Of a DNA stretch of 64,000 nucleotides, positions 4,678 to 54,960 are shown piece after piece. This DNA is from a virus, in the IMG/VR virus record IMGVR_UViG_3300007514_000005, positions 1-64,000 of that record, one strand, 5' to 3'. Below the pieces are notes generated by a model that saw only the letters and a list, made by a program, of their open reading frames with translations, did no database searches and was not told where the DNA came from. Positions within the stretch are counted from its first letter, which is position 1, and each line of letters begins with the position of its first letter. Position numbers and translations under genes: made by a program.

Positions 4678-4922
4678 TATAAGCATTGGTATGTATTTAA
4701 TTTGTTTGAGATTTCTATTGCCTCTAAACAAAATTATAGGCTCGCAGTATAACGGTTTTGTAATTTCTTCAATTCTTTCAATGGTATGTCCGGTATTCCC
4801 CCCTCTTTCTACTCTCAGACACCATTGAAGAAATTAAAGAAAAAGGAAGAAATAGAGTGGTATAGCGAATAATTTTGTTCAAAAACAGGAAAAAGTGTAA
4901 AAAGAATACACGAATGCTTATA
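4678..4922. promoter_or_regulatory. Divergent promoter pair AATGCTTATA
   Basis: Identical 10-mer on minus (4678-4687) and plus (4913-4922), each ~25 nt upstream of an ATG (4653, 4947). Confidence 0.65.
4732..4875. repeat. Quasi-palindromic iteron-like element A
   Basis: (TTTCTTCAA)-like repeats + TGGT, pyrimidine-rich spacer, ACCATTGAAGAAAT. 4732-4785 matches the reverse complement of 54907-54960 at 46/54 ungapped. Confidence 0.8.
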
Positions 4923-4946
4923 TGATGCTATCATCTCAAAGAAATT

Positions 4947-6359
4947 ATGGCGGAGAGAACCCTATGGGATAGATTGCTCGGTAGAAATGTCGAGGCGGAG
5001 TTAGAAAAGCGAATTCCAACCAATAATACCTTCAAAGCAGTAGCGGGAATACCTGATATTGTGCGAGACACAGAAAAACTCAACAAGGACAGTAATTATG
5101 ATAACGAATTCGATATGTATGACCTGATGCTAAAACTAGACCCCGAATTAAATGGCGCTGTTCGTGCAGTCTCCCTTACTGCTAACAATTTTGAGATTCA
5201 GTATGATAAGGCTAAGAATGCTCGCATACGCAATGGGATTAGAGAATTGGTAGAAGAGACGCTTGACTTTGACGATATTATGATTAACGCCATGCGTAAT
5301 CTAATGGTCTATGGGAATGATATTAACAAGATTGTAGGGAAGCAGGGTGAAGGAATCACAGATTTGCAGAACCTACCCGTAGCACAAGTGAATATCGTAG
5401 ATGAGCGGGGCGGTCTTGGGTCTTATTTCGTTGCATCGAAAGAAAACCCCATTATCAAGCCCGTCACATATATGCTACGAGAGGCTTCCAATTATGAAAA
5501 GGCAATTTCAGCAGATGAGGTTCTTCATTTCAAGGTTGATTACCGAAGCAATTGGTTCGTAGATAATAAGGGCCGAAGCACCTATGGTATTTGGGGCGCT
5601 TCTCGATTCTCAGCACTTAAGCAAGCGATACGCATGAAGTATAACTCGATGAATAACCGAGTAAGTCTTGAGGACTCAATGACTAAGCAGTATATCACCA
5701 TAGACAAGTCTGCTATTGAGCATATCCAAGACCCTGCTGAGCAATACGACAGACTCAACACAATTATGAATGATGTTATTTCGCTCTTTGAAGGATTACG
5801 CGGAGACCAAATTCCCGTGCTTCCTCACTATGTAGAGATACACCATGTGGATTTGGAGAATGCACTACCAAACAGTAGTGATTTCTTAGACGCTATTAAC
5901 GGAGATATAGCGGCTGTTCTCCAAGTGCCGAGAGTAGCCGCAGGTCAAGAGCGCGGTTCAACATTCGCCGCAACATACAACGCGAACCTTTGGGCTGTTC
6001 AGGCTATTAGTAGAATGCACAAGATTTTAGAGCAAGCCTGTGCAGAATTGTTTTCCATGCACCTTACTTTACTCGGCATAGAACATAGGAGAATAGACCT
6101 ACCTAGAATTAAGTTTGATGCTATGGACAGCGAAACCCCACTCAACATTATGCAAAGGGCAGTCATGGGGTATGACGCAGGAATTCTTACACTTAACCAA
6201 GCGTTAGAATTAGTCAATATGCCGAAGGCGAAGAAAGAAGAGGGAGACGAAAGAAAAGACCTTAACCCGATAGCGCCACAGACGGGTGAATTGCCCGCAG
6301 AAAATTCACAAGAAGGCAAGCCTTCTGAACAAAAGGACTCAAAACAAGGGGATAATTGA
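4947..6359 (+). CDS. Portal protein
   Basis: 470 aa, first gene of the virion module; DPELNGAV, NLMVYGND, YGIWGASRF, IAAVLQVP and GILTLNQALELV patterns typical of portals. Confidence 0.85.
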   Translation: MAERTLWDRLLGRNVEAELEKRIPTNNTFKAVAGIPDIVRDTEKLNKDSNYDNEFDMYDLMLKLDPELNGAVRAVSLTANNFEIQYDKAKNARIRNGIRELVEETLDFDDIMINAMRNLMVYGNDINKIVGKQGEGITDLQNLPVAQVNIVDERGGLGSYFVASKENPIIKPVTYMLREASNYEKAISADEVLHFKVDYRSNWFVDNKGRSTYGIWGASRFSALKQAIRMKYNSMNNRVSLEDSMTKQYITIDKSAIEHIQDPAEQYDRLNTIMNDVISLFEGLRGDQIPVLPHYVEIHHVDLENALPNSSDFLDAINGDIAAVLQVPRVAAGQERGSTFAATYNANLWAVQAISRMHKILEQACAELFSMHLTLLGIEHRRIDLPRIKFDAMDSETPLNIMQRAVMGYDAGILTLNQALELVNMPKAKKEEGDERKDLNPIAPQTGELPAENSQEGKPSEQKDSKQGDN

Positions 6360-6385
6360 TAAATCAATCAGCGCGTTTATGAATC

Positions 6386-6826
6386 ATGCGCAAGCCTGCC
6401 CCTAATGATTCACTAATGCTTATGTTCGGAACGGCGGTAGTATTGGCGTGGGTAGTGATAGCCGCGTCAGCCTCTTACTACTCTCTTGTTGAACAGCGAG
6501 ATATTTCAGATTCTCAATTAACCGTAATAGGCCTTCTCGGTGGGCCTGCTCTTCTGATTATCACAAGCGTCCTTGATTTGTTTAAGGGTAAGGAGACTGC
6601 GAAAATTAACATTCTACCCGATGAATTGGCTTCCGAAGTAGCGGCTACTGAGGCACATAAGAGCCACACAAGATTGATGCAAGAATTAAGAATCAAGCAC
6701 GAATTGGAGATGGAAGCGCTAAGACAAAAGCACGACCTTAAGATGGATGATTTCGTCACGACTTCGGGTGGTAAAAATTCTTCTGAATTGAAGACTATTC
6801 TACCGAAGAAGAAGAAAGACCGATAA
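6386..6826 (+). CDS. Two-TM membrane protein with coiled-coil tail
   Basis: Two hydrophobic segments, then charged helical C-terminus; own ATAAATCA promoter-like box. Confidence 0.65.
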   Translation: MRKPAPNDSLMLMFGTAVVLAWVVIAASASYYSLVEQRDISDSQLTVIGLLGGPALLIITSVLDLFKGKETAKINILPDELASEVAATEAHKSHTRLMQELRIKHELEMEALRQKHDLKMDDFVTTSGGKNSSELKTILPKKKKDR

Positions 6827-6851
6827 ATCACTCATTAGTTAAGGTAATCGT

Positions 6852-9800
6852 ATGGCGCGGAATCGTAAATTGCAGAACCGTATTGGAACGCAACATATTA
6901 CGGATGAGGCGGAAGCCTCGATAGCCGCCCAAGCGACTATTACCGATGAGCAAATAGAAGATGTAGTCGGCGGTATGCTTGACGGCACAGAAACATTCAT
7001 TGCAGTATCGTATGACGACACAGACGGTAATTTGGACTTTGTTGTTGCTACCAAAGATGAAGACAATATGGCTTCCAATTCTTCTACACATTTACCTACT
7101 CAGCAGTCTGTTAAGACCTATGTTGATGCAGAAGTGGCGGGCATCGTTGATTCAGCGCCCGCCGCACTCAATACTCTAAATGAATTGGCGGCGGCATTAG
7201 GAGATGACGCAAACTACGCTACTACCACTACTACCGCTCTAGGTAATAGGTTAAGAGTAGATACTGCTTCGCAAGGACTTTCAAGCACACAACAAAGCAA
7301 CGCCCTCACTAATTTGGGTATAACTGCTAGTAAGGCTGAAATAAACATATTGGATAATGGGCTTTCAGCAGGCGATATTCCAAGCCTTGCTACATCTAAG
7401 ATTACAAGCGGAACATTCTCGACAGCGTTTATTGCTGACGATGCTATTACCGCAGGAAAATTGGCTGTAAGTGGGAATGGTTCTACTGCTCAATTCCTTC
7501 GCTCAGACGGTGACGGTAGTTTTTCATGGGCCGTTCCCGTAGATACTACTTACTCAGTAGGTGATGGTGGTTTAACACAAAGAAATTTCACTTCTACGCT
7601 AAAGGATAAATTAGATAGCGTAGCCATGAATGCAAACAATTATTCTCTTTCTTCTGACCTACTAGATGAAGATAACATGGCTTCTAACTCGGCTACAAAG
7701 GTTGCTACTCAGCAATCTATCAAAGCGTATGTGGATGCAGAAGTCGCAGGTGTTGTTGATTCTGCCCCTTCCGCTCTTAACACATTAAATGAGTTAGCGG
7801 CGGCTCTTGGAGACGATGCTAATTACGCAACGACTACTTCTACTGCTTTGGGCAACAGACTTAGGGTTGATACTGCTTCACAGGGTCTTAATGGAACACA
7901 GCAGTCAAATGCGAGAACAAACTTAGGTTTGGGAACGGCGGCTACTTTATCCGGCACAGGTGCAGTAGCAAACGGTAATGCAGGTCTAGTCACGGGCGAC
8001 ACAGTATATGACTACATAGCGGCGCAGGGAACATTCGGTGGTTTAAGTGCTGTGGTAGGCGATACTACACCGGAATTAGGTGGAGACCTAGATGTGCAGG
8101 CTCGTAAGATTTACACTAGCACTTCAAATGGTGATATAACACTTGAACCCAAAGATAAGGTGATAGTGAAAACGGGAACATCAGGTAATGATGGTTATTT
8201 GCAGATTCTAGGTGATGGTAATAATGCTGATGCAAAATTAAGATTCACAAACGGCACTTATGGATGCAACATAATTCTAGTTAGAACACAACCAAATACT
8301 CTCAAAATTGAAGGTTCTTCTTCATTCAAATTCGATTGCCGCACTTCTACTTCGGGCATGACCTTCCCCGATGGAACGACTCAAAACACGGCGGCTACAA
8401 GCCTGACTCTTCTTGACGAAGATAATATGGCTACCAATAGCGCTACTGCCGCCGCTTCACAACAGTCAATAAAGGCGTATGTTGATGCTGAGGTTGCGGG
8501 TATTGTTGATTCTGCACCTTCGGCTTTGAATACTCTAAACGAGTTAGCCGCCGCTTTGGGTGATGATGCTAACTATGCCGCCACTACTACTACTGCTCTA
8601 GGACAAAAATTAGTCAAAGCAAGCAACCTGTCTGATTTGACTAACGCGGGAACAGCGAGAACAAACTTGGGCTTAGGGGCGGCGGCAGTAAAGGCTGTTG
8701 CTACTGATGGCGCAGGTGGTGTTGCTGACGGAGAAGCGGGGTTAGTCACAGGTAATGCAGTATATGATTATGTGGCCGCAAACGGTGGAGATAGTAATGC
8801 AGGGGCGGCAAATGGTTCAGCGTCCGCTCCCGCCTTTTCATTCTCAGGTGATAACGACACAGGTATGTATTACAAAAGCAACAACACATTAGGGTTCGCC
8901 ACAGGCGGCACTTTCAGGATGAGTATTGATAACAACGGGCATCTTTTGGGATTAAACAATTTGCATATCGCAGGGTGGGGGTCTTACTCTTACCCCGCTA
9001 TTACTATGGGGGGCGACACAGATACCGGAATAGGTGCAGATGGCGCTAACGGACTTTTCATAGGCACAGGTGGTAGCCCACGAGTGAAGATACAAGGAGA
9101 TGTTGTAGATTTCGTGAATTCAAAGATTAAACTTGGTGGTTCATACGGTTCAGATGGGCAGGTTCTCACTTCCACAGGAAGTGGTGTTGCTTGGGAGAAC
9201 GCAAGTGGGGGTATATCCGATATTGTAAGTGATACATCACCACAGTTAGGTGGTAATTTGGATACTCAAGGGTATTACATTCAAAGTAGCACTTCAAATA
9301 AAACGGTAATAAAACCCGGAGCGGGAAGCGGAAATCCTCAAGTTAGTATCGGAGATGATAGCAACAATCCCGGCATTTTGAGAGTAGGTAGTAATGGGGT
9401 GGATAACGCACTACCCCTTGCTGTTAGCGTCAAGAATTCATCTAACAGCGCACAACAGACCGCCGCGTATTTCTTAGCAGGTAATCAACACTCTTCCGCA
9501 AGGGCGGCAGGATTTGGGCCTAAGATAGAATTTAGGGCTTCTTCCGGCACGCAATATAGCGGCCAAGTATCGGCTACAATAGGCACTAAACAAATAGGAA
9601 CAGGAGAGTCAGCAAACCACGACCTACACCTTGAGGCAGGTGGAACAGGTAAAATTAGGTTTAATGACGAATTTTCATTCCCTGCGGCTGATGGTTCTAG
9701 CGGCCAAGTGTTGCAGACCGATGGTTCAGGAACATTGTCTTGGGCGACAGCAGGCGGCGGAGACTCTTGGGGAACGGCGGTAGATGCTCATATTATTCCT

Positions 9801-12743
9801 GATACTGATAACGCATACGATTTAGGTTCTTCTAGTGCTGAATTCAGAAATGGTTATTTTGACGGAACATTGTATTGTGATGGAATAGATTTGCAAGGCA
9901 ACATTACCGCGCCTAACTCAGATATTACCATAACAGGTGGTGGGCCTCAAGCAGATAGAGCACACATTAAATTACCTAATGCAACAACCGGAACGCTTCA
10001 GATAATGGGAAATTCCTTACAAAATTCTAACATAGACATTGATACCCGTTATTCATCAGGCACAGGACAAATTAGACTCAAAACTAAAGGCTCAACAAGA
10101 TTCGCTGTTGGTGCAGATGGAGACTTACTAATTGGTGGAAGTGCGGCAGGTTCTTCCGGTCAGGTATTGACTTCCGGTGGTAGTGGGTCTGCACCCTCTT
10201 GGGCTACTCCGAGTGGTAGTCCGGGCGGAAGTGATACTCAATTGCAATATAACAACGGTGGCGCTTTTGGTGGAATAACAGGTGTGACTTATGATGACTC
10301 CAATGGTAGGTTATTCTTAGACTCTACAAGAGTAGTTATTGGTGGGTCTGCTAATTATGCTAATGGTCTTACAGTAAATGATGAAGCACAAATGCGAAAT
10401 ACAGTCAAGTTTGCTGACGGTTCTGCTTCTGCCCCTTCTATTACTCGATGGAATAATGGTGATGATAATACAGGTATTTACTTTGTTAATCCTGATGTAA
10501 TAGGCTTTACAACAGGCGGCACTTCAAGAATGACTATTGCGGCTGATGGAACGGTAAATATCACAGGTTCTTTGACTGTTCAGGGGTCTTCTGTTGGTGG
10601 CGCAAGCGCACTTACCGACCTTTCTGATGCGCTCGTAGAAAATAATTCGGTTTGGGTTGGCTCACCCCCTTCTGCAACAAACGGAGCAAGCGATAACACC
10701 GCCATTGGAAAAGGGGCGCTAGATAGTCTCACGACAGGCGACTATAACACGGCAGTCGGAAGGCACGCGCTGAGCGCGGTGACTAGCGGTAATTACAATG
10801 TCGCGCTCGGTTGGTATGCCGCTTCAGAACATAGCACAAGCACAGAAGGTATAGTCGCTATTGGACATAGTGCCGGAAAAACATCAACCGCAAACGGAAA
10901 TGTTCTAGTAGGTCATAGGGCTTTGGAAAACGATTCTTCGGGTGGTTCAAACATCGTCATCGGACATTGGGCGGCGCAACAAACCGAAAATATGTGGACG
11001 AGCGTGTATTTAGGATATTTCGCAGGATATGGTAATTCTTCTACAAGCAATACAGGGGATAGCAACATCGGTATTGGATACGAAGCACATCGAAACCACA
11101 CTACCGGAAGTAGCAATATCGCCATCGGTAAAGCAAGTCTAAAGCAAGCGACTACCGGAACAAGAAATATCGCCATTGGTGAGGGCGCACTAGAAATGCC
11201 CAACACCGAGAATGATAACCTAGCCATCGGTATTGATGCTATGGGTGGTGGCGTCTCAGGTGGAGAATATAATGTAAGCGTTGGTAATTACTCCGGTGGT
11301 GCAAACGCTCTCAACAACCTTTCTGCTGATGAGTCGGTCTTTGTTGGATACAAGGCCGGAAATAAGGTGGAGAGTGGTGGATATAGCACTATGATTGGTG
11401 CGTATGCGGGTCAAGAGGTGACTACGGGTAATTCCCATGTTCTCATAGGAAGAGAAGCAGGACAAAAATTAACTACGAGTAGTGGAGTAGTCGCTATTGG
11501 TTATAATTCAGGTAGATTTGCAACGGGCGCAAATAACACCTTTGTAGGTTATGGGGCAGGAAAGAGAGGAACAGAAGGTAGTAGTCAATCTAACACAGTA
11601 GTAGGATATAACGCTTTGCAAAGCAATTATGGTAATCAAAATACAATAATGGGTAGTCAAGCAGGTATCTTCATTACATCTTCTATGAATACAATCATAG
11701 GAAATAACGCCGGAAGAAACCTAACTTCTGATGCTAACACGGCAGTAGGGTCTGATGCTCTTAACGCCGCTCAAGGTGCTGAAAGAAACACAGCAATAGG
11801 ATACGGTTCATTGGATACATTGAGCACGGGAGACAAGAACACCGCTTTGGGATACAAGAGCGGAGACGCAATGAATACGGGGTCGCATAACATCACTATC
11901 GGAAATGAGGCCGGAGATAATATCACGAGCGGTTCAGGAAATGTGGTAATCGGAAAGGCTGATGTATCAAGTGCAACAGGCAACGACCAATTATCTATCT
12001 CTTCGGGTGACGGAGATGTGACTTGGCTCACAGGAACAAGCGCAGGTGTAGTGGATATTCCCGGCTCTTTGACGGTAGCAGGTGCGTCTGTTGGTGGTGC
12101 TTCTTCTGCCCATGTGATTAAGACTGCGGGTGTAAATTGGTATGGTAGTCAGCAGGCTGATATACGACTTACTTCCCTTCCACCATACGGTGTGAAGGCT
12201 ATGACTACTTTCACTTTCAGCACTTCAGGAGATTACGATAAACCTATCTTCTTCCCCTTCGTTGCTCCAAAGACGGGCAACCTTAGCAGGATGAATTCGT
12301 ATGCTCATAGCGGCGCAACAGGACTAAATTTGCTTGTTGCAGTTTATAGCGACCACAACGGATACCCCGCTTCACTACTTTTCAAAGGAACAATGGATTG
12401 GTCGAGTGGTGGGAATAAAACCATTACATCATTCACAGACGCAAGCGGCAACAGCGTCACTCCTTCTTTAACGAAGGACACCCAATACCATGTAGGTTGG
12501 GTTAGAGACGACAACGGTGTGGCTTACACGGCCTATGTCTCAAATGGGCAATACGGCCCTTCTTCCGGTCTTAACTTGAACATGGCCGAAGCGTATGTGG
12601 GTGTATCAGACACCATTGGGCAGTATGGGGGGTCAAGCAATGTGTTGGCTACTTCCTACAATAGTGGAAGCCCCGATTGGGATGATTTCACTTATTTCAA
12701 TGCGTCTGTTAAGCCGATTAACTTTGGAATTAAATACGCATGA
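6852..12743 (+). CDS. Large fibre/adhesin protein (1963 aa)
   Basis: Three copies of DEDNMA...YVDAEVAG.VDSAP.ALNTLNELAAALGDDANY, GQVL...W linkers and a long N(T/V)A(I/V)G beta-roll region; followed by a fibre chaperone. Confidence 0.85.
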   Translation: MARNRKLQNRIGTQHITDEAEASIAAQATITDEQIEDVVGGMLDGTETFIAVSYDDTDGNLDFVVATKDEDNMASNSSTHLPTQQSVKTYVDAEVAGIVDSAPAALNTLNELAAALGDDANYATTTTTALGNRLRVDTASQGLSSTQQSNALTNLGITASKAEINILDNGLSAGDIPSLATSKITSGTFSTAFIADDAITAGKLAVSGNGSTAQFLRSDGDGSFSWAVPVDTTYSVGDGGLTQRNFTSTLKDKLDSVAMNANNYSLSSDLLDEDNMASNSATKVATQQSIKAYVDAEVAGVVDSAPSALNTLNELAAALGDDANYATTTSTALGNRLRVDTASQGLNGTQQSNARTNLGLGTAATLSGTGAVANGNAGLVTGDTVYDYIAAQGTFGGLSAVVGDTTPELGGDLDVQARKIYTSTSNGDITLEPKDKVIVKTGTSGNDGYLQILGDGNNADAKLRFTNGTYGCNIILVRTQPNTLKIEGSSSFKFDCRTSTSGMTFPDGTTQNTAATSLTLLDEDNMATNSATAAASQQSIKAYVDAEVAGIVDSAPSALNTLNELAAALGDDANYAATTTTALGQKLVKASNLSDLTNAGTARTNLGLGAAAVKAVATDGAGGVADGEAGLVTGNAVYDYVAANGGDSNAGAANGSASAPAFSFSGDNDTGMYYKSNNTLGFATGGTFRMSIDNNGHLLGLNNLHIAGWGSYSYPAITMGGDTDTGIGADGANGLFIGTGGSPRVKIQGDVVDFVNSKIKLGGSYGSDGQVLTSTGSGVAWENASGGISDIVSDTSPQLGGNLDTQGYYIQSSTSNKTVIKPGAGSGNPQVSIGDDSNNPGILRVGSNGVDNALPLAVSVKNSSNSAQQTAAYFLAGNQHSSARAAGFGPKIEFRASSGTQYSGQVSATIGTKQIGTGESANHDLHLEAGGTGKIRFNDEFSFPAADGSSGQVLQTDGSGTLSWATAGGGDSWGTAVDAHIIPDTDNAYDLGSSSAEFRNGYFDGTLYCDGIDLQGNITAPNSDITITGGGPQADRAHIKLPNATTGTLQIMGNSLQNSNIDIDTRYSSGTGQIRLKTKGSTRFAVGADGDLLIGGSAAGSSGQVLTSGGSGSAPSWATPSGSPGGSDTQLQYNNGGAFGGITGVTYDDSNGRLFLDSTRVVIGGSANYANGLTVNDEAQMRNTVKFADGSASAPSITRWNNGDDNTGIYFVNPDVIGFTTGGTSRMTIAADGTVNITGSLTVQGSSVGGASALTDLSDALVENNSVWVGSPPSATNGASDNTAIGKGALDSLTTGDYNTAVGRHALSAVTSGNYNVALGWYAASEHSTSTEGIVAIGHSAGKTSTANGNVLVGHRALENDSSGGSNIVIGHWAAQQTENMWTSVYLGYFAGYGNSSTSNTGDSNIGIGYEAHRNHTTGSSNIAIGKASLKQATTGTRNIAIGEGALEMPNTENDNLAIGIDAMGGGVSGGEYNVSVGNYSGGANALNNLSADESVFVGYKAGNKVESGGYSTMIGAYAGQEVTTGNSHVLIGREAGQKLTTSSGVVAIGYNSGRFATGANNTFVGYGAGKRGTEGSSQSNTVVGYNALQSNYGNQNTIMGSQAGIFITSSMNTIIGNNAGRNLTSDANTAVGSDALNAAQGAERNTAIGYGSLDTLSTGDKNTALGYKSGDAMNTGSHNITIGNEAGDNITSGSGNVVIGKADVSSATGNDQLSISSGDGDVTWLTGTSAGVVDIPGSLTVAGASVGGASSAHVIKTAGVNWYGSQQADIRLTSLPPYGVKAMTTFTFSTSGDYDKPIFFPFVAPKTGNLSRMNSYAHSGATGLNLLVAVYSDHNGYPASLLFKGTMDWSSGGNKTITSFTDASGNSVTPSLTKDTQYHVGWVRDDNGVAYTAYVSNGQYGPSSGLNLNMAEAYVGVSDTIGQYGGSSNVLATSYNSGSPDWDDFTYFNASVKPINFGIKYA
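7055..8600 (+). repeat. Three in-frame ~60-90 aa repeats within the fibre gene
   Basis: Copies at ~7055, ~7665 and ~8415; near-identical protein, diverged at synonymous sites. Confidence 0.85.
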
Positions 12744-34900: not shown

Positions 34901-36911
34901 AACTGATTACCCTAAACCTAATGTTGGCGATACTACTACATGGAAGGTTCTTGAGCACCCCGAAATAACAAACAGTATAGAAGCGTTGTCCGTAGCAAAG
35001 GCAGAATATAATGCCCGTAAGAAAAACCCAATAGAGTTAGATGTAGAAATGCTTAGGCTACACGCAGACGATAGAGACGCAATGTTAGATGGTGGAAGAT
35101 ACGGCTACATAGCAGACGCGCAGGTGGCTCTACAAGGCAACAACGACCAATCATTAGGCACGGCTTGGTGTTGGACTATCATGGGAACGGGGGGCGTGCC
35201 GTTTAGCGGGATGACTAACGGGATTGATGGAAATATGGGTGCAGTAGTGACTAAGGATACTCTTCATAAGAGATACGGTTCTTCTGCCCCTGTCGGTAGC
35301 GGCACTATTGAGCATAAGGATAACTACACTTGGTATGGCTCTCGGTCTGTATCTAACGCCTTACAAATAGTCCATGTGGGTAAGGATGCACCAAAGGTAA
35401 GTGAGACTACCGGAGAAAAACTAAGAGTCGTAGTAGCCATTAAACCCTCACAAGCAGGCACTACAACCATAGAAACTACACAATTCAGGGTCTTTTTACT
35501 TGACTGTGCCTTTGCTACTACTACATCGAGTGGTTATGGGCCTGATTTGAAGTCGGCTATCGAAGGACATTCTTACCTAGATGTGCAATACAATGGTTTT
35601 TATGAGATTGATGTTCCTTCTTCATACGGAACGGGTAAGGTAGTGTTCTCTTTCAACGCAGACTATTGCCGAGACCTACTCAGAAGCCGATGTGGAGACC
35701 CGACAAGTTATCCTACTGTGCTTAGAAATTCTTTAACCTACTTGGGAGACACCACTAACAAGACCGTCACTTTGGAAGGCAATAACAACCTAAGTAGTAT
35801 CTTCCCTCTTGGTTGTAGAAAGCAGACTAGCATGAAAGGTGGTTTTGGTGATGTAAGAGCCATGTGGTATGCACCAACCTTAAACATTATAGATGATGTT
35901 ATGTATGTGCCTGCAACCTATGTGAAATACACAGATGCCGGATTCGATATAAACAATAAAACAATGGTTATAACAAATGTTGAGTGGAGAATTTCATTTG
36001 GCGAAGGGGAGACTGTTAAACTGTCTTTGAGAGAAGATGAATCAAATGCCGTAGGAAGTATTCTTTCGTATGTGTTTAAGCCCGTAAGCCCACCTAGTGC
36101 ATCGGCAGGAGACCCGTCATCCACCATTGTTAATGTAATACCGCCGTCAGGTGGAGTAGGAGATGAAATAAAGCCCGATACACCAAGCGGTGGAAACAAA
36201 CCTTCTGATGAAGACGGATACTCCATAGGATACGGAGTAGGACTTTCAGACTTACCTGCGGGCTTGTATAGAACCCTCATGGGCGGTATGGATAACACAG
36301 GTAGTCAGTATTCATCTCAATATAGCAACAGCATTTTAGGACAGAACATTATGCCTACTACCCCCTCTAGTATGCGTGGTATGACCGGAGCACTAAGAAT
36401 TCACCCTACAAGTGGTTCGGCTACTGCTACCAAAAACGGAATAAATTTGCCGGGTAAAGGAAAGGAAGAAGGTGTAGGGGCAGAAGCAGAAAATAAATTT
36501 TCAAAGAAAGAAATAGAGCATACAGCAGAAGTTAGATTACAAACACCACCGGATGCAATAAACGATGAATTAAATATCACGGCTGATTTGAAATTACCCG
36601 CTACAACCAAGCAGGGTTCAGCCGTCCTTTATGTGCAGGCTACCTGCTTAGAGACAGGGGCAAGTATTTCTGAGGTTATTGGTGTGAATACAGGTTCTAA
36701 CCTGAAAAATATGCAATTGTGCTCAGCAGGAATTCTTACGGGGGCAGGCACTACGGGTAATACCATTGTAGTATCTTTGAGTAGAAGGTCGGGGGTAGGA
36801 GACGACACGGCTCATTACACTACCATGTCTGTGGAGAATCTAAATATCAATTTCAGAAGGGCGGCTTTCCCTGCCGAGAATACAAGCAATGTATTCATGC
36901 CTTACTCTTGA
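28923..36911 (+). CDS. Giant tail tip/baseplate-receptor-binding protein (2662 aa)
   Basis: Directly after TMP; beta-rich, GSGY repeats, hub-like segments (VWRGLLKSIDL...IQFTAYD; MVITNVEWR...VKLSL). Confidence 0.7.
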   Translation: MVRVVKDKYNLWLVGYYDDFNGARAISNDDNVPDNSSQGAFSHLFTHYGNPLNGEATLNPRYRWCYYDRTTVGGYPNADEPYMFSLAINRLLHNKGAFEWISHDVIRNYPSEPQGRSQLQYPDGHTNTNKFRIHPFSGGGDDAYQMFCNGHNTLGRYIVPTGDIDSSFGRRDMNGYGATWTSKTDGKNTWVKVNEMGGSNFGNDDAITMVRRAHLAGKWMGETLKQTSSTETMPLNVFAPVESPSGMPFLCVQQYNQTGNNSTPSIPTIYYDNSLNSRDTNDILHFRLAVRSFNGGTASNGKITPKVTIKAGYTGGPAAITNGITDMEAGLTGTPKISFDLDLTGYDTNPHLYTGNTTKIAYNNDDSWIDVDVHLNYDTGKFNVYQDGNLKLSNQSMSGAVAENMYGWAIFMHPTSGDDNVTSTLMLDRVALCRPLTDDPIGRDLPPINNMRASTTINGYSYCSFELIDDADNYDETNYGFSTDNYNHNFTSMFVGNKLADWGVVFFAGAGETGNHGIARIDRPVWRGLLKSIDLKENKDGRKIQFTAYDTLTSMDKTIPMWELGQNKTNDLETFSPYWAYDAEGLMQVMDLGSSSLKQFAANVGRDSSNSFENRLDQRTQLRTGHPIQMYVNEDASGPNNIEDDFEGAGVEYFYEDSTGIRFVLTGNPNMGASGNIVIDNTGIPAYDNLTLAITAHHSIDSTGATVAYNASHAQEVLTVAKGSGTGQFPFTEQYTNSIAYIGKYIGPSVAHDDENYSFTAGHNVDIMANYNRYMTFIENNPATWENGRGSIGGLRIIDAGSGYTVANNYYTLVDGVKEKKGNILLPAPVQPDPSAFPYWVGETATAEWESETTHINVGPETPTGDDTSVTWIEGRITDAIVTNGGSGYGYLNNGTSYNAMPDLTTVDRIQGTGTYNNSGATALTLNQTSNTWPVNNNHTGLNGVHIISGNSSHGAGSKMGYFNVLSGSHSSSGSGLVLKVTVNADENGATQNNSTVDIEVVAVGSGYALNDTLVATIEYFAPLPTIISLFVTVSSITQDAELEIIRAEQAYTDTLSFHMDTSQSAVLSTLSVGDEFVISGASSDYDDIRGKHTIKAIKKVLNYHGNPTAPNEKGRYLYQIQTYTPIPSGFTEGDFGDFDKKWGLMLSSYHYGALDQRLAWSKKTMATLTPKPASMTEDITSRAIHARWMRDLDDSLWFKYHFGRIGYNAQHSFNLVSAVDANANKIEVTQATYNAAPNAGVAEIVQPQPSINYETRKDLRDVFIYKCKYTEGGKWYLGACKYISISHPTTVNAWGDDSQLASQPVKINIIKHDNNYKHIWLLWADMRNDATADADGGKRKKDFGLKYPTADNYSFDIQFDDQFDEDGNPESFAELKIGEDLDVWEIDSTIDDSTGSPFSQPLDYDNMVVLTGSNFSSVGGKLSIAKTGHGLADDDYVGLINCGATYDKVHKVTVTNSDNFVLDVAYTSGFSGTIPKFFYAKTKGSSIDETYYRDWEGKGGAFVVVDTSKFFNLNTLSNKGKVGQDGGGETNLGDYYAVGVGDPVLIDSYYINAASTTATTNSNYRNHYNLDRMVANKTELASSIIKGHFWLEPTDTTIFSKHGLGRALGLTNGSNHRSTWYFLWNGKVEEDVFANTVTVASPSIGDKFWTITKSGATFISDGVVAGTYVENTSKPLVEGVGDSWKGGWKQKHYYRVKEVVSETQLKIERVIHYTPSETTRWGFEYGTTGESFSGFTHGLYVRPAGLDNDSITDGWATGNHLKIPKQLCNILVDTVNSGGTDNTWNPSGIETIFTERFKELVGTRNPIQYAHSSTDIDNNAFSVVEVYTSTANEFAYRLMMKINGKYKNTNGGTFYESDKMRTLWTNSLLRSWWADTKLTAMFDIQNVPISFDMTTYNTNSQYDSYGSMIDSNGDALMDTLKDTASNTGVGDENSLFTSFSWLVGRDNRFDFRPKYNSGYTITRDEVKISKFAMSQMERVDNVRVIYNQGMSITDYPKPNVGDTTTWKVLEHPEITNSIEALSVAKAEYNARKKNPIELDVEMLRLHADDRDAMLDGGRYGYIADAQVALQGNNDQSLGTAWCWTIMGTGGVPFSGMTNGIDGNMGAVVTKDTLHKRYGSSAPVGSGTIEHKDNYTWYGSRSVSNALQIVHVGKDAPKVSETTGEKLRVVVAIKPSQAGTTTIETTQFRVFLLDCAFATTTSSGYGPDLKSAIEGHSYLDVQYNGFYEIDVPSSYGTGKVVFSFNADYCRDLLRSRCGDPTSYPTVLRNSLTYLGDTTNKTVTLEGNNNLSSIFPLGCRKQTSMKGGFGDVRAMWYAPTLNIIDDVMYVPATYVKYTDAGFDINNKTMVITNVEWRISFGEGETVKLSLREDESNAVGSILSYVFKPVSPPSASAGDPSSTIVNVIPPSGGVGDEIKPDTPSGGNKPSDEDGYSIGYGVGLSDLPAGLYRTLMGGMDNTGSQYSSQYSNSILGQNIMPTTPSSMRGMTGALRIHPTSGSATATKNGINLPGKGKEEGVGAEAENKFSKKEIEHTAEVRLQTPPDAINDELNITADLKLPATTKQGSAVLYVQATCLETGASISEVIGVNTGSNLKNMQLCSAGILTGAGTTGNTIVVSLSRRSGVGDDTAHYTTMSVENLNINFRRAAFPAENTSNVFMPYS

Positions 36912-48138: not shown

Positions 48139-48188
48139 GGTATCTACCTTCTTGTTCTATCCACCGCTTGTTCTATCCGCATATAAAC

Positions 48189-49070: not shown

Positions 49071-49084
49071 GTATCTTCCTCGTA

Positions 49085-49300
49085 GGTGGGGGGAGTGGCT
49101 TTTCCAACGGCTCGCATTTCTTACTTGGATGAGTTAGAAATTTCAGGTGCTTGGATATGGTTTGGACTACCCCAAATGTGTAGCCTCGCCTAAGACAATG
49201 TTAGTTTCAAATGGTTGGTAGAATGGACTCCCATAAGTATTTTCAAGTGTCGCTTATCTCACCAAACCAAATTACGCCTCTTCGGTCTCTCCCCCCAAAC
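49085..49300. ncRNA. Candidate structured non-coding RNA / long structured leader
   Basis: Terminal helix TGGGGGGAG(49087-95)/CTCCCCCCA(49289-97), nested TGGTTTGG(49158-65)/CCAAACCA(49262-69), internal hairpin ~49117-49140; no convincing ORF; promoter motif at 49312-27. Confidence 0.5.
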
Positions 49301-49330
49301 CACACTCTATCTATCCGCATATAAACCTAA

Positions 49331-49693: not shown

Positions 49694-49739
49694 GCTTATT
49701 TCATGGTTATAGTGTGCTATAATCTATCCGCATATTAAC

Positions 49740-50135: not shown

Positions 50136-50173
50136 GTATAGTCGTGATACTTAAGTGTATTTGAGAGTATTGA

Positions 50174-50350
50174 TTAGTCATCCTGCCCCATAAACATTGA
50201 AGCATAGAAGAATTCACCTTCGTCTCCTTCTTTTTTGTATTTGTGTGTCGGAACAACACTCGCAATTTCATGTAATAATGCCCCCCATACTGCCGCCAAA
50301 AACATGATTAGTATAGGGATAATACAACACAAAGCCAAAATCAAATCCAT
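50174..50350 (-). CDS. Small membrane protein (58 aa, not in track)
   Basis: MDLILALCCIIPILIMFLAAVWGALL... Confidence 0.55.
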   Translation of the reverse strand: MDLILALCCIIPILIMFLAAVWGALLHEIASVVPTHKYKKEGDEGEFFYASMFMGQDD

Positions 50351-51006
50351 TCGTTAGCCCCCACTTTTGTTTTGTTAATGTTCTTTGGAATCTCAACCGC
50401 CTTATCTCGTATCTCGTTGGCGGCAGAATCATTACCCTCTATAATTTCCTTCCAATACTTGTCGGTTTGGCGGAAGGGAAGGGGAACATCTTGAACATCT
50501 TTGTTCTTTTTCGGCCACTTTGTCTTCTCATGTGAGGCTTCTACCCCGTAAGCAAAAATAGCCCTTACATATTCATCGGGTAATTCCATATTTGCTTGCG
50601 CAATGCGTCTCCAAAGAGCAATGTCGTCTCTATTTTGCCTTAGAAAAGCAAGACCATAGGGAATTGGTAATTCTCTTATCGCATACCACACTCTCTTGCG
50701 GTCTTTCCAAGAGAGCATAGCCATCACATCGTTAAGGTAGGAGCGCCCCTGTCGGGTAGCCCACTCATCAATAATGACGGAATCCTGTAAGTCTCCGGTA
50801 ATTACGGGCGGTTTTTCGGTGCAAACCACCAATCTATTACCGACATACGGAAGCCACGCTTCAACATCTTTCTGTGTGAATCTGTCCGTGCGTAGAATGT
50901 AAGTGGTATCGGGGTTAGAGGGCGGGGTATCTATTTTACCCGTCATAAGAATGTAATTACCAACCATGAATTTTTCATCATCATTAGTAAAAATAACTAC
51001 TCCCAA
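50341..51006 (-). CDS. Hypothetical protein, possibly degenerate clamp-loader large subunit
   Basis: 221 aa; weak resemblance of PIPYGLAFLRQN...LWRR to the RfcL collar region; no Walker motifs. Confidence 0.4.
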   Translation of the reverse strand: MGVVIFTNDDEKFMVGNYILMTGKIDTPPSNPDTTYILRTDRFTQKDVEAWLPYVGNRLVVCTEKPPVITGDLQDSVIIDEWATRQGRSYLNDVMAMLSWKDRKRVWYAIRELPIPYGLAFLRQNRDDIALWRRIAQANMELPDEYVRAIFAYGVEASHEKTKWPKKNKDVQDVPLPFRQTDKYWKEIIEGNDSAANEIRDKAVEIPKNINKTKVGANEWI

Positions 51007-51017
51007 ATTTTTTCCCC

Positions 51018-51287
51018 CTAATTTTCTTTACCGTCTATATATACAAAGGGGTCATGCGCATAAACATAATCGCACAAGCGCCGATACTGTGAGTCGGACA
51101 ACAACCACGCATCTCTAACTGCTTTAGCCGTTAAAGAGTAGCCGTTGTTAGACCAAAGAATCTTACCGTCTCCGAGAACACCTACTAGACCATCCTCTAT
51201 CATTGCTGTAATAAGTAAAGGCCATTCGTCCTTGTATATCGGGCGCTTGAACAAATACCTATTTGTCTTGCTTCTCCATTGCTTCAT
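51018..51287 (-). CDS. Hypothetical protein
   Basis: 89 aa, coupled in operon. Confidence 0.6.
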   Translation of the reverse strand: MKQWRSKTNRYLFKRPIYKDEWPLLITAMIEDGLVGVLGDGKILWSNNGYSLTAKAVRDAWLLSDSQYRRLCDYVYAHDPFVYIDGKEN

Positions 51288-51573
51288 CTAAAGGACTCCC
51301 CTCTTTCTTGTAGGTCTTTACGCTCGCTCTCGCACCTTCCGGCCACTTAGTATTCATAGTCAAATACACAGAATACTCGTTGCGCGGACTGTCTTCATCG
51401 TTGCGCTTCCACACAATACCATGCTCTAAACACTCAAGGTATTCCAAAGCCTTAACTTCTTGTGCGAAAAATTTAGGGGGCATTCTTACTATATTCCATC
51501 CGTCTCGGAAGTAATTGTATCTTCCATCTCTAGCATGACCCGTGACTTTGAAGGGCATAGAACCTATACTCAT
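51259..51573 (-). CDS. Hypothetical protein
   Basis: 104 aa; ATGA overlap with the upstream gene. Confidence 0.6.
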   Translation of the reverse strand: MSIGSMPFKVTGHARDGRYNYFRDGWNIVRMPPKFFAQEVKALEYLECLEHGIVWKRNDEDSPRNEYSVYLTMNTKWPEGARASVKTYKKEGSPLDEAMEKQDK

Positions 51574-52196
51574 TCTATCACCTCGTAATCAACATCAATC
51601 ACATTAGACGGGGCTTTCAGCGCCGCCATTCTCAATTCTATATCGTCTAACAATTCAGGGTGGTGCTTCAAAGTATCAACAAGTATGCCGCTTAAATTAT
51701 TCATCTGCGCTTGCGCGAGAAGTAATTGGGAATCAACACCAATCTCCTTCTTCAATTGACCTACTAATTTGAGACTTGAGTTAGCCTGTCCTATGAGTCT
51801 TGTGGCGTCAGCAACGAAGTCGGAAGTAATGCCGCCATGTTGCTCCTTTCTCTCTTCTAACTCATCCAAGTAAGAGCGTATTCTTATTACAATATCTTCT
51901 GCTGAGTCGAGCGTGTTAATGGACTGCTCTCTTGCCTTCTCCAAGTGCTGTGCTTCTTCGGGGTCGAATTCAATGTGACTCTCCATGTGGGTCATCACCG
52001 TTCCTTCCGGCCAATTATGTTTGCTCTCTAAATAATCGGGGGAAGTTTCGTCAGCCATCACATCTTTTTCGTAATCCTTTCGCTTTTTATGGTCGCACAT
52101 ACCGCACCCACCATCAAGCACCCATCGGAGCACTTCAATAACGAAAGCATCATTCTCATTAGCAAGTCTTTGTTGTATCTCTAATCGTGTTTTCAT
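51570..52196 (-). CDS. Putative terminase small subunit (Zn-finger/HTH + coiled coil)
   Basis: CGMCDH..R...H..SH, oligomerisation-type helices, C-terminal VIDVDYEV tail typical of TerS-like proteins. Confidence 0.5.
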   Translation of the reverse strand: MKTRLEIQQRLANENDAFVIEVLRWVLDGGCGMCDHKKRKDYEKDVMADETSPDYLESKHNWPEGTVMTHMESHIEFDPEEAQHLEKAREQSINTLDSAEDIVIRIRSYLDELEERKEQHGGITSDFVADATRLIGQANSSLKLVGQLKKEIGVDSQLLLAQAQMNNLSGILVDTLKHHPELLDDIELRMAALKAPSNVIDVDYEVIE

Positions 52197-53488
52197 TCTA
52201 CTCCCCCTGTTCCTATTCTACAAAGCATACCCTTTCTACCACGCCTGTTGGTCTCCGGCTCGTATTCACTATACCATGACTGTCCTTCAAGGTTTTCTAT
52301 GACCCACCGCTTAGCGCTTTGGTAATCACCTTGTGTAATCATGCGGGAAATCTCCTTCAACAATTGAGACTTAGGTAAGTCTTGCTTCCAAAAGGTAGAG
52401 CGTATCAATTCAAGGTCTGCATCCATTACTCGCCTTCGTTGTAGTAGAGACAGGTTAAGTATCTCTTCTAACTGCTCGTCCATAGTAATGAGTAAGGGTT
52501 GTCCGCCCTTGTAGGTAGGTTGCATCATGTGGTATCCAATCGCAAGCCTACGGAATAAGTCTGCCTCAAAGGAACGAACATCGGGGCGTTCAATCCACTC
52601 CCCAATGTCGTCATCGAATATAATCCCCGTAGGGGGGTTGGCTACCGCATACTCCATGCGGTTCTTTAACCATTGTTTTATCTCAAAAGCCATCGAAGCC
52701 AATTGCGTCCTTTCTTCTACGCTCATGTTAGACTGTTGGTGTTGGGCCTTCTTGTAGAGCAATTCCTTTTCGGGAGTCATCTCAATATCAATAATGAAGA
52801 ATCTTCGGTCAAGGCCGGAGTCTAACTCAAACCTTGCGGGCTGTGTTCCTGCCCATACTGTGTAGCGGGTTGTGTATCGAACCCACCCATTGCGTAGCGC
52901 TTTTTGCACGCGCCCATTGTCTAGGGAAGTCAGCAATTGGTTTTTCATATCCATACTGTGGTCTTTTTTTGACGCATCAGACATACTGCTGAATTCCTCA
53001 AAGCCTAAGAATCCACCACACATCTCACGAGCAATAGGTCTGCCCGTCAGGTCTCCGAATTCATCCACAGAACCAAACATACCTGCTTCCGTTATAGAGT
53101 TAGCACCCATCATGGTTCTCATGCCCTGCCCTAACTCTTGGTTTTGGTTGTGAAGAAGGCCTGTGCCTTCGGCTAGGAATAGTAGAATCATAACCGACTT
53201 ACCACTACCCTTAGCACCACGCAACATAATATGTATGCGCGTATCAGGTAATTGCGACATGGGTGTGTAGAACGGTATATTGCTGTGGCGTAGCGGGCAG
53301 TTATCAATAGTGAAGTCGTTTTCTTCATCCACCAACGGGCTGTCGGGGTCGAAGTCGCAACGACTACACTTGTTTAGCGCGTTGAATATGTGACTTCCTA
53401 TACTGCATAGGAAAATCGGCAGTTTATCATCTACATCAACATAGTAATTTCGCCGTGCGAATTCTTTAACGCTTGTAAATATGTTCAT
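52193..53488 (-). CDS. MCM-like AAA+ ATPase lacking the N-terminal domain
   Basis: GAKGSGKS, SITEAGMFGS, GGFLGFEEF, LLTSLDNGRV, VWAGTQP, LDRRF. Confidence 0.75.
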   Translation of the reverse strand: MNIFTSVKEFARRNYYVDVDDKLPIFLCSIGSHIFNALNKCSRCDFDPDSPLVDEENDFTIDNCPLRHSNIPFYTPMSQLPDTRIHIMLRGAKGSGKSVMILLFLAEGTGLLHNQNQELGQGMRTMMGANSITEAGMFGSVDEFGDLTGRPIAREMCGGFLGFEEFSSMSDASKKDHSMDMKNQLLTSLDNGRVQKALRNGWVRYTTRYTVWAGTQPARFELDSGLDRRFFIIDIEMTPEKELLYKKAQHQQSNMSVEERTQLASMAFEIKQWLKNRMEYAVANPPTGIIFDDDIGEWIERPDVRSFEADLFRRLAIGYHMMQPTYKGGQPLLITMDEQLEEILNLSLLQRRRVMDADLELIRSTFWKQDLPKSQLLKEISRMITQGDYQSAKRWVIENLEGQSWYSEYEPETNRRGRKGMLCRIGTGGVE

Positions 53489-54390
53489 GGCCTAAATTCC
53501 CCGTTGTCTGTGCTGTCTCCGAATAGGTCATCAGTATTAAAGCCATCGGCAGGTGGAATAATGTCGTTTATGTTTATCTGAGTCATTGTCTTCATCTCAC
53601 TTAGTTTAAGCGACATTTCTTCAAGCGCTTCTTCATCGTGGTTTAGTCCGTATTTTAAGCGTAAGTGGTTAAGGAAGGTATCTGCAACATCACTATCCAT
53701 GAAGTCTGTTCCTACACCACCCAACAATACTTCTGAAAAGCGCGGAGTATTTTCACAGAAGGTTGCGAATAAATCACACCATATCCACACATTAGGTTGG
53801 ACTACGAAATCATCATGGGTATCAACCATTGTGTCTCCGTGCATTTTTTCTACCTCATCTGCTAAGCGCACGAAGTCGTATTCTACAATGTGTCCGTGTT
53901 CTACATCACCAAAGTCCTCAAATTCCCTGTGGAAAGTAAATAGGTTGCTAGTCAGGTAAGACATTCTATTGACGCCTACCTCATTGAGTAGCATTATTAT
54001 ATCCCTTACAATAGGGTAGGTGTAGAGCCAAACCATCGGGTTGGCGTTAGGTCTCATCGTAGGCTCTACGGGGTGTAGGTTTGGAATCCTCAGTATGAAG
54101 AATCTTTCACCCTTATTGTTGTAAGTTTCGTAGAGTCTGTATTCGGGCCAAAACGGGGCGGGAATATAATTGACCGCATTCACAGTCATTAGGTTAGAGT
54201 AAATCTTAGCAATGGGTTCTTGCTCTCCTATCAAAGCCCTACCTGCGAGTGCAGTAGCAAAGCCGTGCTCCTGTTGGTAATACACAATCAAGTGTGTGTT
54301 TTCCTTCTCCGGTTTTTCATCAGTCCAAACCATATCCACATTCATTCTACTTTCTATTACACTCATAGTAAATTCTCCTGTCTCTTCCAT
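53485..54390 (-). CDS. PAC2-family (proteasome assembly chaperone-like) protein
   Basis: HGFATALAGRALI, PEYRLY, IVRDIIMLLNEVGVNRMSYL, DSDVADTFLNHLRLKYGLNHDEEALEE follow the PAC2/PbaA-B pattern in order. Confidence 0.55.
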   Translation of the reverse strand: MEETGEFTMSVIESRMNVDMVWTDEKPEKENTHLIVYYQQEHGFATALAGRALIGEQEPIAKIYSNLMTVNAVNYIPAPFWPEYRLYETYNNKGERFFILRIPNLHPVEPTMRPNANPMVWLYTYPIVRDIIMLLNEVGVNRMSYLTSNLFTFHREFEDFGDVEHGHIVEYDFVRLADEVEKMHGDTMVDTHDDFVVQPNVWIWCDLFATFCENTPRFSEVLLGGVGTDFMDSDVADTFLNHLRLKYGLNHDEEALEEMSLKLSEMKTMTQININDIIPPADGFNTDDLFGDSTDNGEFRP

Positions 54391-54765
54391 TCATCTCTCA
54401 CAAATTTCGGGTGTGCCTTTATGTTCATAACCAAGTGGTCTTTTGTAAGAAGGTCTGCTATTTTGCTTTTTATTTCCTCGTCACTCAAAGGCGCATAAAG
54501 AGGAATCGTGCTACTCCTATTCCCGTATGCGTTGTAGTTTTCTTCCACACCTACACACTTGAACCACCTAGACTTCCTCAACACCTGCGCCACCTGATTC
54601 ATCGAGTATGTCTTTCGTGTCCTTACGACTCTACCTGACGACTTGTAAATGGAAGTCCATTCGTTGAGAACATTGTGTATCTCTCGTGTATTCATTGCTC
54701 GCCCTTTTTCTTTCATTGCCGTGTATGCTCTATGTTGCATCGTGGCGTTGCCTCTACTAGCCATA
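54363..54765 (-). CDS. Winged-helix DNA-binding protein
   Basis: AMNTREIHNVL...SMNQVAQVLRKSRWFKCVG; first gene after promoter motif 54780 (track start 54788). Confidence 0.6.
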
Positions 54766-54824
54766 AACCTCATACCACCTGTCCGCATATAATTCTTTTT
54801 AATTCACCCACACAAGCAGAAATA

Positions 54825-54960
54825 ATAAATCGCACTACTGCGAGCCACCCCATCTATTTCTTCAATTTCTTCAATGGTATGTTAGAGACCTTCCCTTCCT
54901 TAAACCACTATTGAAATAATTGAGGAAATTAGAAAAGCGTTAGACTGCAAGCCGATAATT
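54825..54960. repeat. Quasi-palindromic iteron-like element B
   Basis: TTTCTTCAA x2 + TGGT, pyrimidine spacer, ACTATTGAAATAATTGAGGAAAT; flanked by two ACTGC(G/A)AGCC boxes; inverted homolog of element A. Confidence 0.8.

Follow-up and report, generated by a model that had tools for sequence, protein, structure and literature searches.

Why should an archaeal tailed virus keep several copies of one palindromic element, each in front of a different gene? The question is raised by the IMG/VR record IMGVR_UViG_3300007514_000005, from which the first 64,000 nucleotides were analysed (hereafter the window); the whole record has 72,008 bp with identical 119-bp ends, which gives a unit length of 71,889 bp. 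Two palindromic elements of about 130 bases each, element A (4739-4872) and element B (54827-54953), stand out in the window, and a previous interpretation made from the letters alone (the sequence-only reading) took them for a dual origin of replication or a looping/inversion system. In the surface ocean, magroviruses belong to the most abundant viruses of archaea, and both these viruses and their hosts are uncultured; to our knowledge, nothing is known about how magrovirus replication starts or how the genes are timed. The virus studied here is magrovirus-like: it encodes PolB, a thermosome and RFC, and its gene content matches the description given in the available text of Philosof 2017. 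The answer proposed in this work, to which we assign a probability of roughly 0.45, is that A, B and a third copy, C, act as upstream control regions through which one DNA-binding protein of the virus is shared by several promoters.

The homology between A and B agrees with the sequence-only reading. Positions 4732-4785 of A are equal to the reverse complement of B 54907-54960 at 46 of 54 ungapped positions, the local alignment reaches about 60 nt, and a blastn-short comparison in the whole 72-kb genome gives 51 nt at 86% identity (E 1.8e-7). The inner arms match each other directly (A 4763-4789 with B 54856-54882; 27 nt, 92.6%, E 4.4e-5) as well as in inverted orientation (22 nt, 95.5%, E 1.7e-4), and the pair is the longest of the inverted repeats listed for the window. 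Read towards the downstream gene, both elements share the same layout: an outer motif (M2), an arm, a variable core, the inverted arm and a second M2. From 40 to 60 nt past the second M2 there is a box resembling a TFB recognition element plus TATA box (BRE/TATA), and then a start codon. M2 has the core GCAGTAnnnCG, can be written as GGCTCGCAGTAnnnCG(N)TTT, and is followed each time by a T-run. Each arm is made of two 9-bp units of the TTTCTTCAA type and ends in ATGGTATG, and the clustered units of one element are consequently two per arm, two arms and two M2. The tandem 9-bp units described earlier are present, since A reads ATTTCTTCA-ATTCTTTCA-ATGGT ... ACCATTGAAGAAATTAAAGAAA and B reads ATTTCTTCA-ATTTCTTCA-ATGGT ... 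ACCACTATTGAAATAATTGAGGAAAT. The cores of A and B are variable and pyrimidine-rich on the plus strand; they start near TTTAG(G/A) and end near TCTCTAAAC. Once each element is read towards its downstream gene, A and B are colinear over their full length; they look mutually inverted because A serves a plus-strand gene (portal) and B a minus-strand gene (winged-helix).

A scan with a position weight matrix (PWM) of M2 revealed a third member of the family, C, at 68,907-69,040 of the genome, past the end of the window. The idea of a two-element system was therefore not borne out, as there are three elements per genome. C precedes a small gene of the early region and is common to the genome of the window (G000) and to G001; the distance between its two M2 is 115 nt, compared with 113 nt in A and 107 nt in B. 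The PWM has 11 matches in this genome, against 2.8 in shuffled sequences, and 6-9 in four relatives, against 2.2-2.6 in shuffles. Within the genome the same site recurs at A (with two promoters), at B, at C and in a cluster of M2 sites devoid of arms before the open reading frame (ORF) 235-1023.

Both A and B are kept at the same places across the related genomes examined. There were 166 portal relatives in IMG/VR, from which the best 80 of 166 were kept (71-92% identity); 59 loci with enough upstream sequence, together with the window, gave 45 distinct portal-upstream regions, and the PWM recognises an A-type element in all of them. B is found upstream of the winged-helix gene in the five complete genomes compared (G000-G004), and also in two more loci (L082 and L083) in which the neighbouring gene is 72% and 49% identical, respectively. 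A and B are also oriented alike with respect to the gene downstream in the five complete genomes. In IMG/VR, a scan for the exact pattern matched 94 stretches, and the 69 distinct matches in the 80 listed loci were followed by portal (30), winged-helix (18, of which 6 were assigned by BLAST and 12 more by alignment) or exonuclease genes (8), by a small early ORF (1) or by unassigned sequence (12); that is, 57 of the 69 were assigned to magrovirus-type genes. No description of such elements was found by term search of the main texts (supplements excluded) of PMC5434244, PMC11706807 and PMC10160649, or by wider searches.

The distance between element and gene is also conserved. The promoter-proximal M2 lies 90-93 nt from the portal start in 35 of the 45 distinct regions and 99-101 nt from it in 10. 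By hand count, the extra 9-11 nt sit between M2 and the TATA box (loci L023 and L044), and the distance from TATA to the portal ATG is constant at 29 nt (window and L023). From M2 to the winged-helix start there are 77-79 or 86-92 nt. The classes of distance differ by about one turn of the helix, which is compatible with a face-of-helix constraint. Related to this, A is symmetric in a distant subgroup, where an M2 on the minus strand is turned to the exonuclease gene from a distance of 90-97 nt (8 loci); both divergent promoters are thus accompanied by an M2 of their own, similarly spaced. A fixed position and orientation of the site relative to the core promoter, which is what an operator should have, was hence found for the portal gene (45 of 45), the exonuclease gene (8 loci) and the winged-helix gene.

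The pattern of variation gives information about the nature of the site. The left M2 of A keeps its place and flips its orientation (16 plus, 21 minus and 8 weak; n=45), M2 pairs are direct as often as inverted, and the three bases between GCAGTA and CG vary freely. Such flips, together with the freely varying inner bases, point to a site for a protein and not to base pairing. The copies of the element within one genome are about 75-85% alike, and the left halves of the paralogues A and B within the G003/G004 clade are 0.80-0.82 identical, in comparison with 0.64-0.73 for orthologues across clades; this concerted change fits one shared binder. Spacing, orientation flips, uncompensated arms and concerted change, considered as a whole, argue for arrays of protein-binding sites, not for an RNA or a mobile element.

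The location of A between divergent promoters, already noticed by the sequence-only reading, was verified: an operon with an Mre11-like exonuclease and TerL lies on the left, and the portal/structural operon on the right. The promoter-like class CsAATGmTTATAwG is convincing only at 4687(-) and 4913(+), which flank A. Another class, AGGTTTATATGCGGAyAG, has seven members on the minus strand between 40.5 and 58.7 kb, including one at 54793, downstream of B, and a third class (cgAAAGGTTTAwTA / gaCAGGTTCATAAGGG) is found in the 64-72 kb region. A and B head two long convergent arms, one structural (4.9-37 kb, plus strand) and the other one for replication (54.8-37 kb, minus strand), and C is located in the early region. 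In the mechanism proposed, one virus-encoded DNA-binding protein would bind M2 and/or the arms at A, B and C, and the AT-rich palindrome between the M2 sites could allow the bound proteins to form a single looped or wrapped complex. At B, whose promoter drives the winged-helix-ATPase operon, the first of the replication block, this complex would control the expression of its own protein. At A, which would serve the only two 'AATGCTTATAwG' promoters of the genome (exonuclease/terminase and portal/structural operons), it would switch on, or hold off, the divergent late promoters, and the temporal programme would be coordinated in this way.

The best candidate for the binder is the 133-aa protein encoded beside B. 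B is directly upstream of the gene that the sequence-only reading had called a winged helix-turn-helix gene, and the product does model as a winged helix, with the order helix-helix-strand-helix-wing (predicted local distance difference test, pLDDT, 87; predicted template modelling score 0.79). The best structural match is 2od5 (Z 10.6, root-mean-square deviation 4.4, 87 residues aligned; Foldseek E 1.4e-3), an uncharacterised nucleic-acid-binding protein from an uncultured marine organism, and the next ones are many DNA-binding winged helices with Z 7-8. An exhaustive search gave 11 relatives of the protein, and a word-index search returned the protein itself only. In all the cases inspected its gene comes after a B-type element, a layout typical of repressors, activators or initiators that regulate their own expression.

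The same operon encodes a 431-aa ATPase (ORF 52193-53488), with the Walker A motif, the Walker B-like motif LGFEEF and the arginine-finger-like motif GLDRRF; we take all three to resemble motifs of MCM proteins. There is no Pfam MCM (PF00493) match in this protein at E<=10, and phmmer and profile searches against PDB gave no relevant sequence match (one chance row). It has 336 close homologues, all of them without a Pfam domain, and the core of its AlphaFold2 model has a pLDDT below 50, too poor for a fold search. The label 'MCM-like' proposed by the sequence-only reading was not confirmed: only the motifs mentioned and a general statement in the available text of Philosof 2017 speak for it, whereas the Pfam and PDB searches and the low-confidence model do not. 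The labels 'PAC2-like' and 'TerS-like' for other products of the operon found no support in domain or structure searches. A search of the 301-aa protein against the ESM Atlas provided low-confidence kinase-like leads only, which name no family.

Several facts weigh against shared control regions bound by the winged-helix protein. The figure of 45 out of 45 portal-upstream regions is partly circular, since the PWM was built from the same sequences, although the alignment shows the motif independently, and the helical-phase argument rests on about three independent insertions. An element of about 130 bp with six sites exceeds the need of most archaeal operators. The 120-nt stretches of lowest GC in the genome fall at A and C, which would suit DNA unwinding elements too, and the ATPase gene adjoining B is called a replicative helicase in the available text of Philosof 2017. 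In one subgroup structure is selected in addition to sequence, as shown by the compensated hairpin described below. As for the binder, the recognition helix differs greatly among winged-helix proteins of this family, in contrast to the constant GCAGTA, and no clean covariation between the type of recognition helix and the arm variant was seen when both were inspected by eye.

The main competing explanation is that the elements are origins of replication, or origin-plus-promoter modules of the SV40/papillomavirus/geminivirus type. It is compatible with the control-region reading, and we regard it as possible but rather unlikely. In that case M2 or the inverted 9-bp units would be recognised by the winged-helix protein, melting would take place in the AT-rich arms and a viral AAA+ helicase of the MCM type would be loaded symmetrically; a 72-kb genome would have two or three such origins. 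Arguments for it are the deep conservation of the elements and their build, with repeated units in inverted arrays about a centre and a second type of site on the flanks, and B directly precedes the genes of the winged-helix protein and the P-loop ATPase (this holds for B only, as A and C adjoin other genes). According to the available text of Philosof 2017, every magrovirus has genes for an MCM helicase and a nearly complete replisome. As the sequence-only reading had stated, the virus encodes no Orc1/Cdc6 (no Cdc6_C match at E<=1 in the 72-kb genome), hence a viral initiator would be needed. Besides, the two most AT-rich stretches of 120 nt are 4829-4948 (right arm of A plus spacer) and 68,901-69,020 (C), with a GC of 0.267, and forks leaving A and B would run with the transcription of the convergent arms. 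B, however, is not unusually AT-rich (GC 0.40, 16th percentile), neither the fixed distance and orientation with respect to the promoter nor the steps of about 10 nt are expected of an origin as such, and the MCM identity of the ATPase lacks confirmation by Pfam, PDB or model. The skew inflections anticipated at both elements did not appear as such: GC and AT skew flip at about 1.2, 4.7, 37 and 64 kb, which are the four switches of gene strand, and nothing happens at B; because the sign follows the gene strand, the skew is not an independent origin signal. On the host side, orc1 was found in 31 of 31 genomes of the G006 family, but 29 host-type orc1 upstream regions (about 500 nt each, of uncertain status as host origins) showed neither M2 nor the 9-bp unit by eye. 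A 10-mer, TCAATTATTT, which is common to one of these regions (L130) and to the arm of B, was taken as chance. A bolder version, in which the three elements would be magrovirus origins built like those of SV40 or papillomaviruses, is somewhat more doubtful still. A winged-helix binder and a stripped-down MCM-type ATPase would assemble on the inverted 9-bp units, with M2 as auxiliary sites at their sides, and would gate the late promoters without Orc1/Cdc6; if true, this archaeal tailed virus would have a physical link between the replication of its genome and the switch from early to late genes.

The other explanations are less probable. Folded nucleic acid, be it a cruciform, a single-stranded DNA hairpin (priming or assembly signal, N4-like promoter) or a small RNA, is an improbable function for the elements. 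As single-stranded DNA, A and B fold better than 200 shuffled sequences (A z -3.6, with 2/200 as good; B z -2.95, with 1/200), and a perfect 6-bp stem with a 3-nt loop is found at the same place in 10 of 41 aligned elements; as its variants GTTCCC, GTTCCT, GTTACC and GTTACT are all compensated, secondary structure has been selected in one subgroup. This hairpin is nevertheless absent from the window's own elements, RNAalifold gave 0 consensus pairs in 19 aligned elements, the differences between arms are mostly uncompensated and the G-U counts have no strand preference (230 vs 284). Rfam 15 had 0 matches (window, gathering threshold; 52-72 kb, E<=1), a Pfam analysis of the giant structural ORFs aimed at a virion RNA polymerase able to use hairpin promoters provided nothing such, and no RNA contig from the metatranscriptome run X7 covers B or C, which is a weak point because the four runs used (X1, X5 and X7 among them) were compared as contigs, not as raw reads. 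Quite improbable is also that the elements are selfish miniature inverted-repeat elements, bidirectional terminators or packaging (pac) signals, as could be suspected from palindromic, intergenic, multi-copy sequences with T-runs after each M2, one of which (A) is near the terminase and portal genes. They are not mobile, since their positions are fixed across relatives with portal identities of 71-92% and with the gene beside B down to 49%, and the copies within a genome have diverged to the extent given above instead of being near-identical. Termination is not the shared role because nothing reads into A from either side, and a pac site is at odds with the presence of three copies in each genome. 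When one genome per prokaryote species was scanned with the pattern GCAGTANNNCG-N(8-30)-TTCTTCAA-N(25-55)-TTGAAGAA, 13 stretches were obtained, about 3 being expected by chance (rough estimate); no cellular copy of the element was found among the four inspected (L115, L116 and two bacterial ones), which are coding or non-palindromic. Both archaeal matches are the same coding sequence without palindromic arms, L115 (in G006) coming from a Methanobacteriota metagenome-assembled genome (MAG) and L116 (in G005) from a Candidatus Poseidoniaceae MAG. The least credible explanation is the one that the sequence-only reading had advanced, i.e. crossover sites for site-specific inversion or looping recombination that would flip the 50-kb (or 22-kb) segment between A and B. 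The two elements are inverted to each other over about 60 nt at about 85% identity, but the genome has no Phage_integrase or Resolvase match at E<=1 (tyrosine or serine recombinase), the order B, C, A and their relative orientation are identical in 5/5 complete genomes, the probable source run (X1) contains one colinear contig without an inversion joint (contigs can hide rare variants), and the orientation of each element is accounted for by its downstream gene.

Two more observations concern the elements in relatives of the virus. In G004 (L110), element A has a perfect inverted match of 23 nt with element B, TATTTATTTTATTTCTTCAAAGG (40,156 vs 56,825), one more indication that paralogous elements are kept alike within a genome. 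In run X5, which contains a relative at 90-95%, a contig joins C to B (G000 68,922 to 54,853; L112 16914 to 2845) with 10 other letters between them; this joint is probably an element of the relative aligning half to each paralogue, recombination between elements being another possible origin. The features of the window and its surroundings are collected in Table 1.

Table 1. Coordinates of the elements A and B, of the sites without arms and of the neighbouring promoters and genes
Feature	Position	Strand	Remarks
M2-only sites (no arms)	110-128; about 146-168	+; -	PWM; upstream of ORF 235-1023
Mre11/SbcD-like DNA repair exonuclease gene	3178..4653	-	divergent from portal; phrog_704, E 2.1e-59
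Promoter-like BRE/TATA (CCAATGCTTATAAGAC), exonuclease-TerL operon	4674..4689	-	conserved; ATG 4653 about 22 nt after TATA
Element A, distal M2 (GGCTCGCAGTATAACGG + TTTT)	4739..4759	+	PWM 19.5 bits; + in near relatives, - in distant ones
Element A, left arm (units ATTTCTTCA/ATTCTTTCA + ATGGTATG)	4762..4788	.	conserved in alignments
Element A, variable core	4789..4819	.	pyrimidine-rich on +; ends in conserved TCTCAGAC; about 25-75 nt among relatives
Element A, right arm (CACCATTGAAGAAATTAAAGAAAAAGGAAGAAAT)	4820..4853	.	inverted copy of left arm
Element A, promoter-proximal M2 (GAGTGGTATAGCGAATAA)	4855..4872	+	degenerate here; 11.9 bits; G 90 nt before portal ATG
Promoter-like BRE/TATA (CGAATGCTTATATGA), portal/structural operon	4911..4925	+	TATA-ATG 29 nt
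Portal gene	4947..6359	+	PF04860, E 7.3e-12
Rest of winged-helix operon	51570..54390	-	301-aa protein, 431-aa P-loop ATPase (Walker A GAKGSGKS), 208-aa protein
Winged-helix protein gene, 133 aa	54363..54764	-	62 nt beyond B; immediately downstream of the B-type elements examined
Dispersed motif TGCTTGTGTGGGTGA + TATA-like AGAATTATATGCGGA before winged-helix gene	54782..54819	-	
Element B, promoter-proximal M2 (minus strand GGCTCGCAGTAGTGCGATTT)	54827..54846	-	19.8 bits
Element B, promoter-proximal arm (ATTTCTTCA ATTTCTTCA ATGGTATG on +)	54856..54881	.	
Element B, core	54882..54905	.	
Element B, distal arm	54906..54929	.	
Element B, distal M2 (minus strand GGCTTGCAGTCTAACGCTTTT)	54933..54953	-	10.8 bits
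M2-only site, exact for GGCTCGCAGT only	56,245	+	
M2-only site	71,842	+	just across the circular junction from the ORF 235-1023 cluster

Apart from the products already mentioned (the clamp loader being RFC-like and the chaperonin of the thermosome type), the genome encodes a PD-(D/E)XK nuclease, DUF932, an ERCC4 nuclease, a Cpn10-like protein, a NUDIX protein and tail proteins, and a weak TerL nuclease domain is present. The thermosome points to magrovirus group A or D as these groups are given in the available text of Philosof 2017. A query of the INPHARED phage collection with the portal protein gave no match, and the tRNA scans found none, the tRNA-looking stretch near 69.9 kb included. 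The 1963-aa ORF at 6852-12743 contains three tandem-ish copies of a 265-nt unit at 7055-8678 (71% and 60% identity to the first), which, as read from the letters, correspond to domains repeated within a giant structural protein. No meaningful Pfam match was obtained for this ORF or for the 2662-aa ORF at 28923-36911.

With regard to other promoters, the motif GCTTGCGTGGkCGA was found on the minus strand at 54804-54819, 57845-57859, 60600-60614, 61808-61822, 63052-63066 and 63832-63846. It sits just upstream of the TATA-like boxes of minus-strand genes in the 55-64 kb region and of the winged-helix gene, and it may be a further promoter class or the site of a regulator. The promoter class of the 64-72 kb region resembles CAGGCTTATGAGGGGGACTCGGACTC, located before host-type orc1 genes. 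The orc1 genes of the archaeal family around G006 (L126, L133-L161) share the promoter CAGGCTTATgAGGGGGACTCGGACTC, which closely resembles the early promoters of the virus (gaCAGGTTCATAAGGGGAGAC..CTCGG), and this likeness fits a host group of the G006 type.

The ORF-poor 'early' region of G000 (63,800-71,889) carries the palindrome CTACAAATTTGTAG, with 19 full copies and 62 half-sites, none of them elsewhere. These palindromes flank small, apparently leaderless ORFs, each one behind a BRE/TATA-like box, and the region looks like an operator array for another regulator. In the same region, three GC-rich stretches free of ORFs (about 64,150-64,600, 65,100-65,500 and 68,400-68,850) lie behind cgAAAGGTTTAwTA promoters and look like structured non-coding RNAs. 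Run X7 contains contigs that are 100% identical to 64,109-64,390 (depth 12.5) and 68,540-68,820 (depth 106); the latter has by far the highest depth of the 8 pieces from this run and ends about 90 nt before C. Finally, an ORF-free stretch behind a promoter-like box at 49,325(-) has perfect complements to coding parts of the operon headed by B: 21 nt at 49119-49139 with 51855-51875, and 17 nt at 49152-49168 with 54322-54338 (genes of the 208-aa and 301-aa proteins). This stretch could be a trans-acting antisense RNA. We estimate that chance alone would give about 5e-4 perfect 21-mers in the window; the complementarity is not conserved at 17 nt or more in G001-G004.

The elements are short, sharply defined and deeply conserved, that is, they are DNA targets with a 133-aa candidate binder, which can be tested in vitro without any culture. 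If they are switches, as the control-region reading proposes, they would be one of the few cases in which the control of promoters from multiple sites is worked out for an archaeal virus; if they are origins, they would reveal the way in which an MCM-type helicase is loaded by a virus that lacks Orc1/Cdc6. In addition, the M2/arm pattern is a compact DNA signature of this clade, matched by the 94 IMG/VR stretches mentioned above.

Some features of these elements are shared with well-known systems. Archaeal chromosomal origins consist of an origin recognition box, an unwinding element and another origin recognition box next to orc1/cdc6. The elements described here have likewise inverted repeated sites that bracket AT-rich DNA, but they belong to a virus without orc1/cdc6 and their M2 pairs are direct as often as inverted. 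In P1 parS and the N15 sites, two types of motif are arranged around a bendable centre, and dispersed palindromic sites occur near promoters. Two motif types and several dispersed palindromic sites near promoters are also present here, whereas no ParA/ParB-type family was detected among the 46 ORFs scanned with Pfam (part of all ORFs). The common region of geminiviruses places iterons and a stem-loop between the divergent promoters of Rep and the coat protein. The likeness consists in one intergenic module with repeated units, a palindrome, bidirectional promoters and an adjacent replication gene that would be autoregulated; the difference is that this 72-kb double-stranded DNA genome has no HUH Rep and no nonanucleotide loop, and its arms are not conserved at the level of base pairs.

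The origin-promoter regions of SV40/polyomaviruses and papillomaviruses have inverted initiator units, AT-rich flanks, a second class of sites, divergent early and late promoters and autoregulation by the initiator. Inverted pairs of units around a centre, a second type of site, M2, and, for A, a place between divergent promoters are common to the elements of this work. In contrast, the virus is an archaeal tailed virus with PolB and a putative MCM-type ATPase, the candidate binder and the ATPase are encoded by separate genes, and there are three copies of the element. The sites of p4 in phi29 and the operators of lambda are regulator sites at a fixed register before divergent promoters. Although the promoters are here of the archaeal BRE/TATA type, the element is a larger composite of about 130 bp with two types of site and the regulator is a candidate only, the elements share with them a multi-copy site, a fixed register and a candidate regulator gene beside one set of sites, and looping between the copies would be plausible as well.

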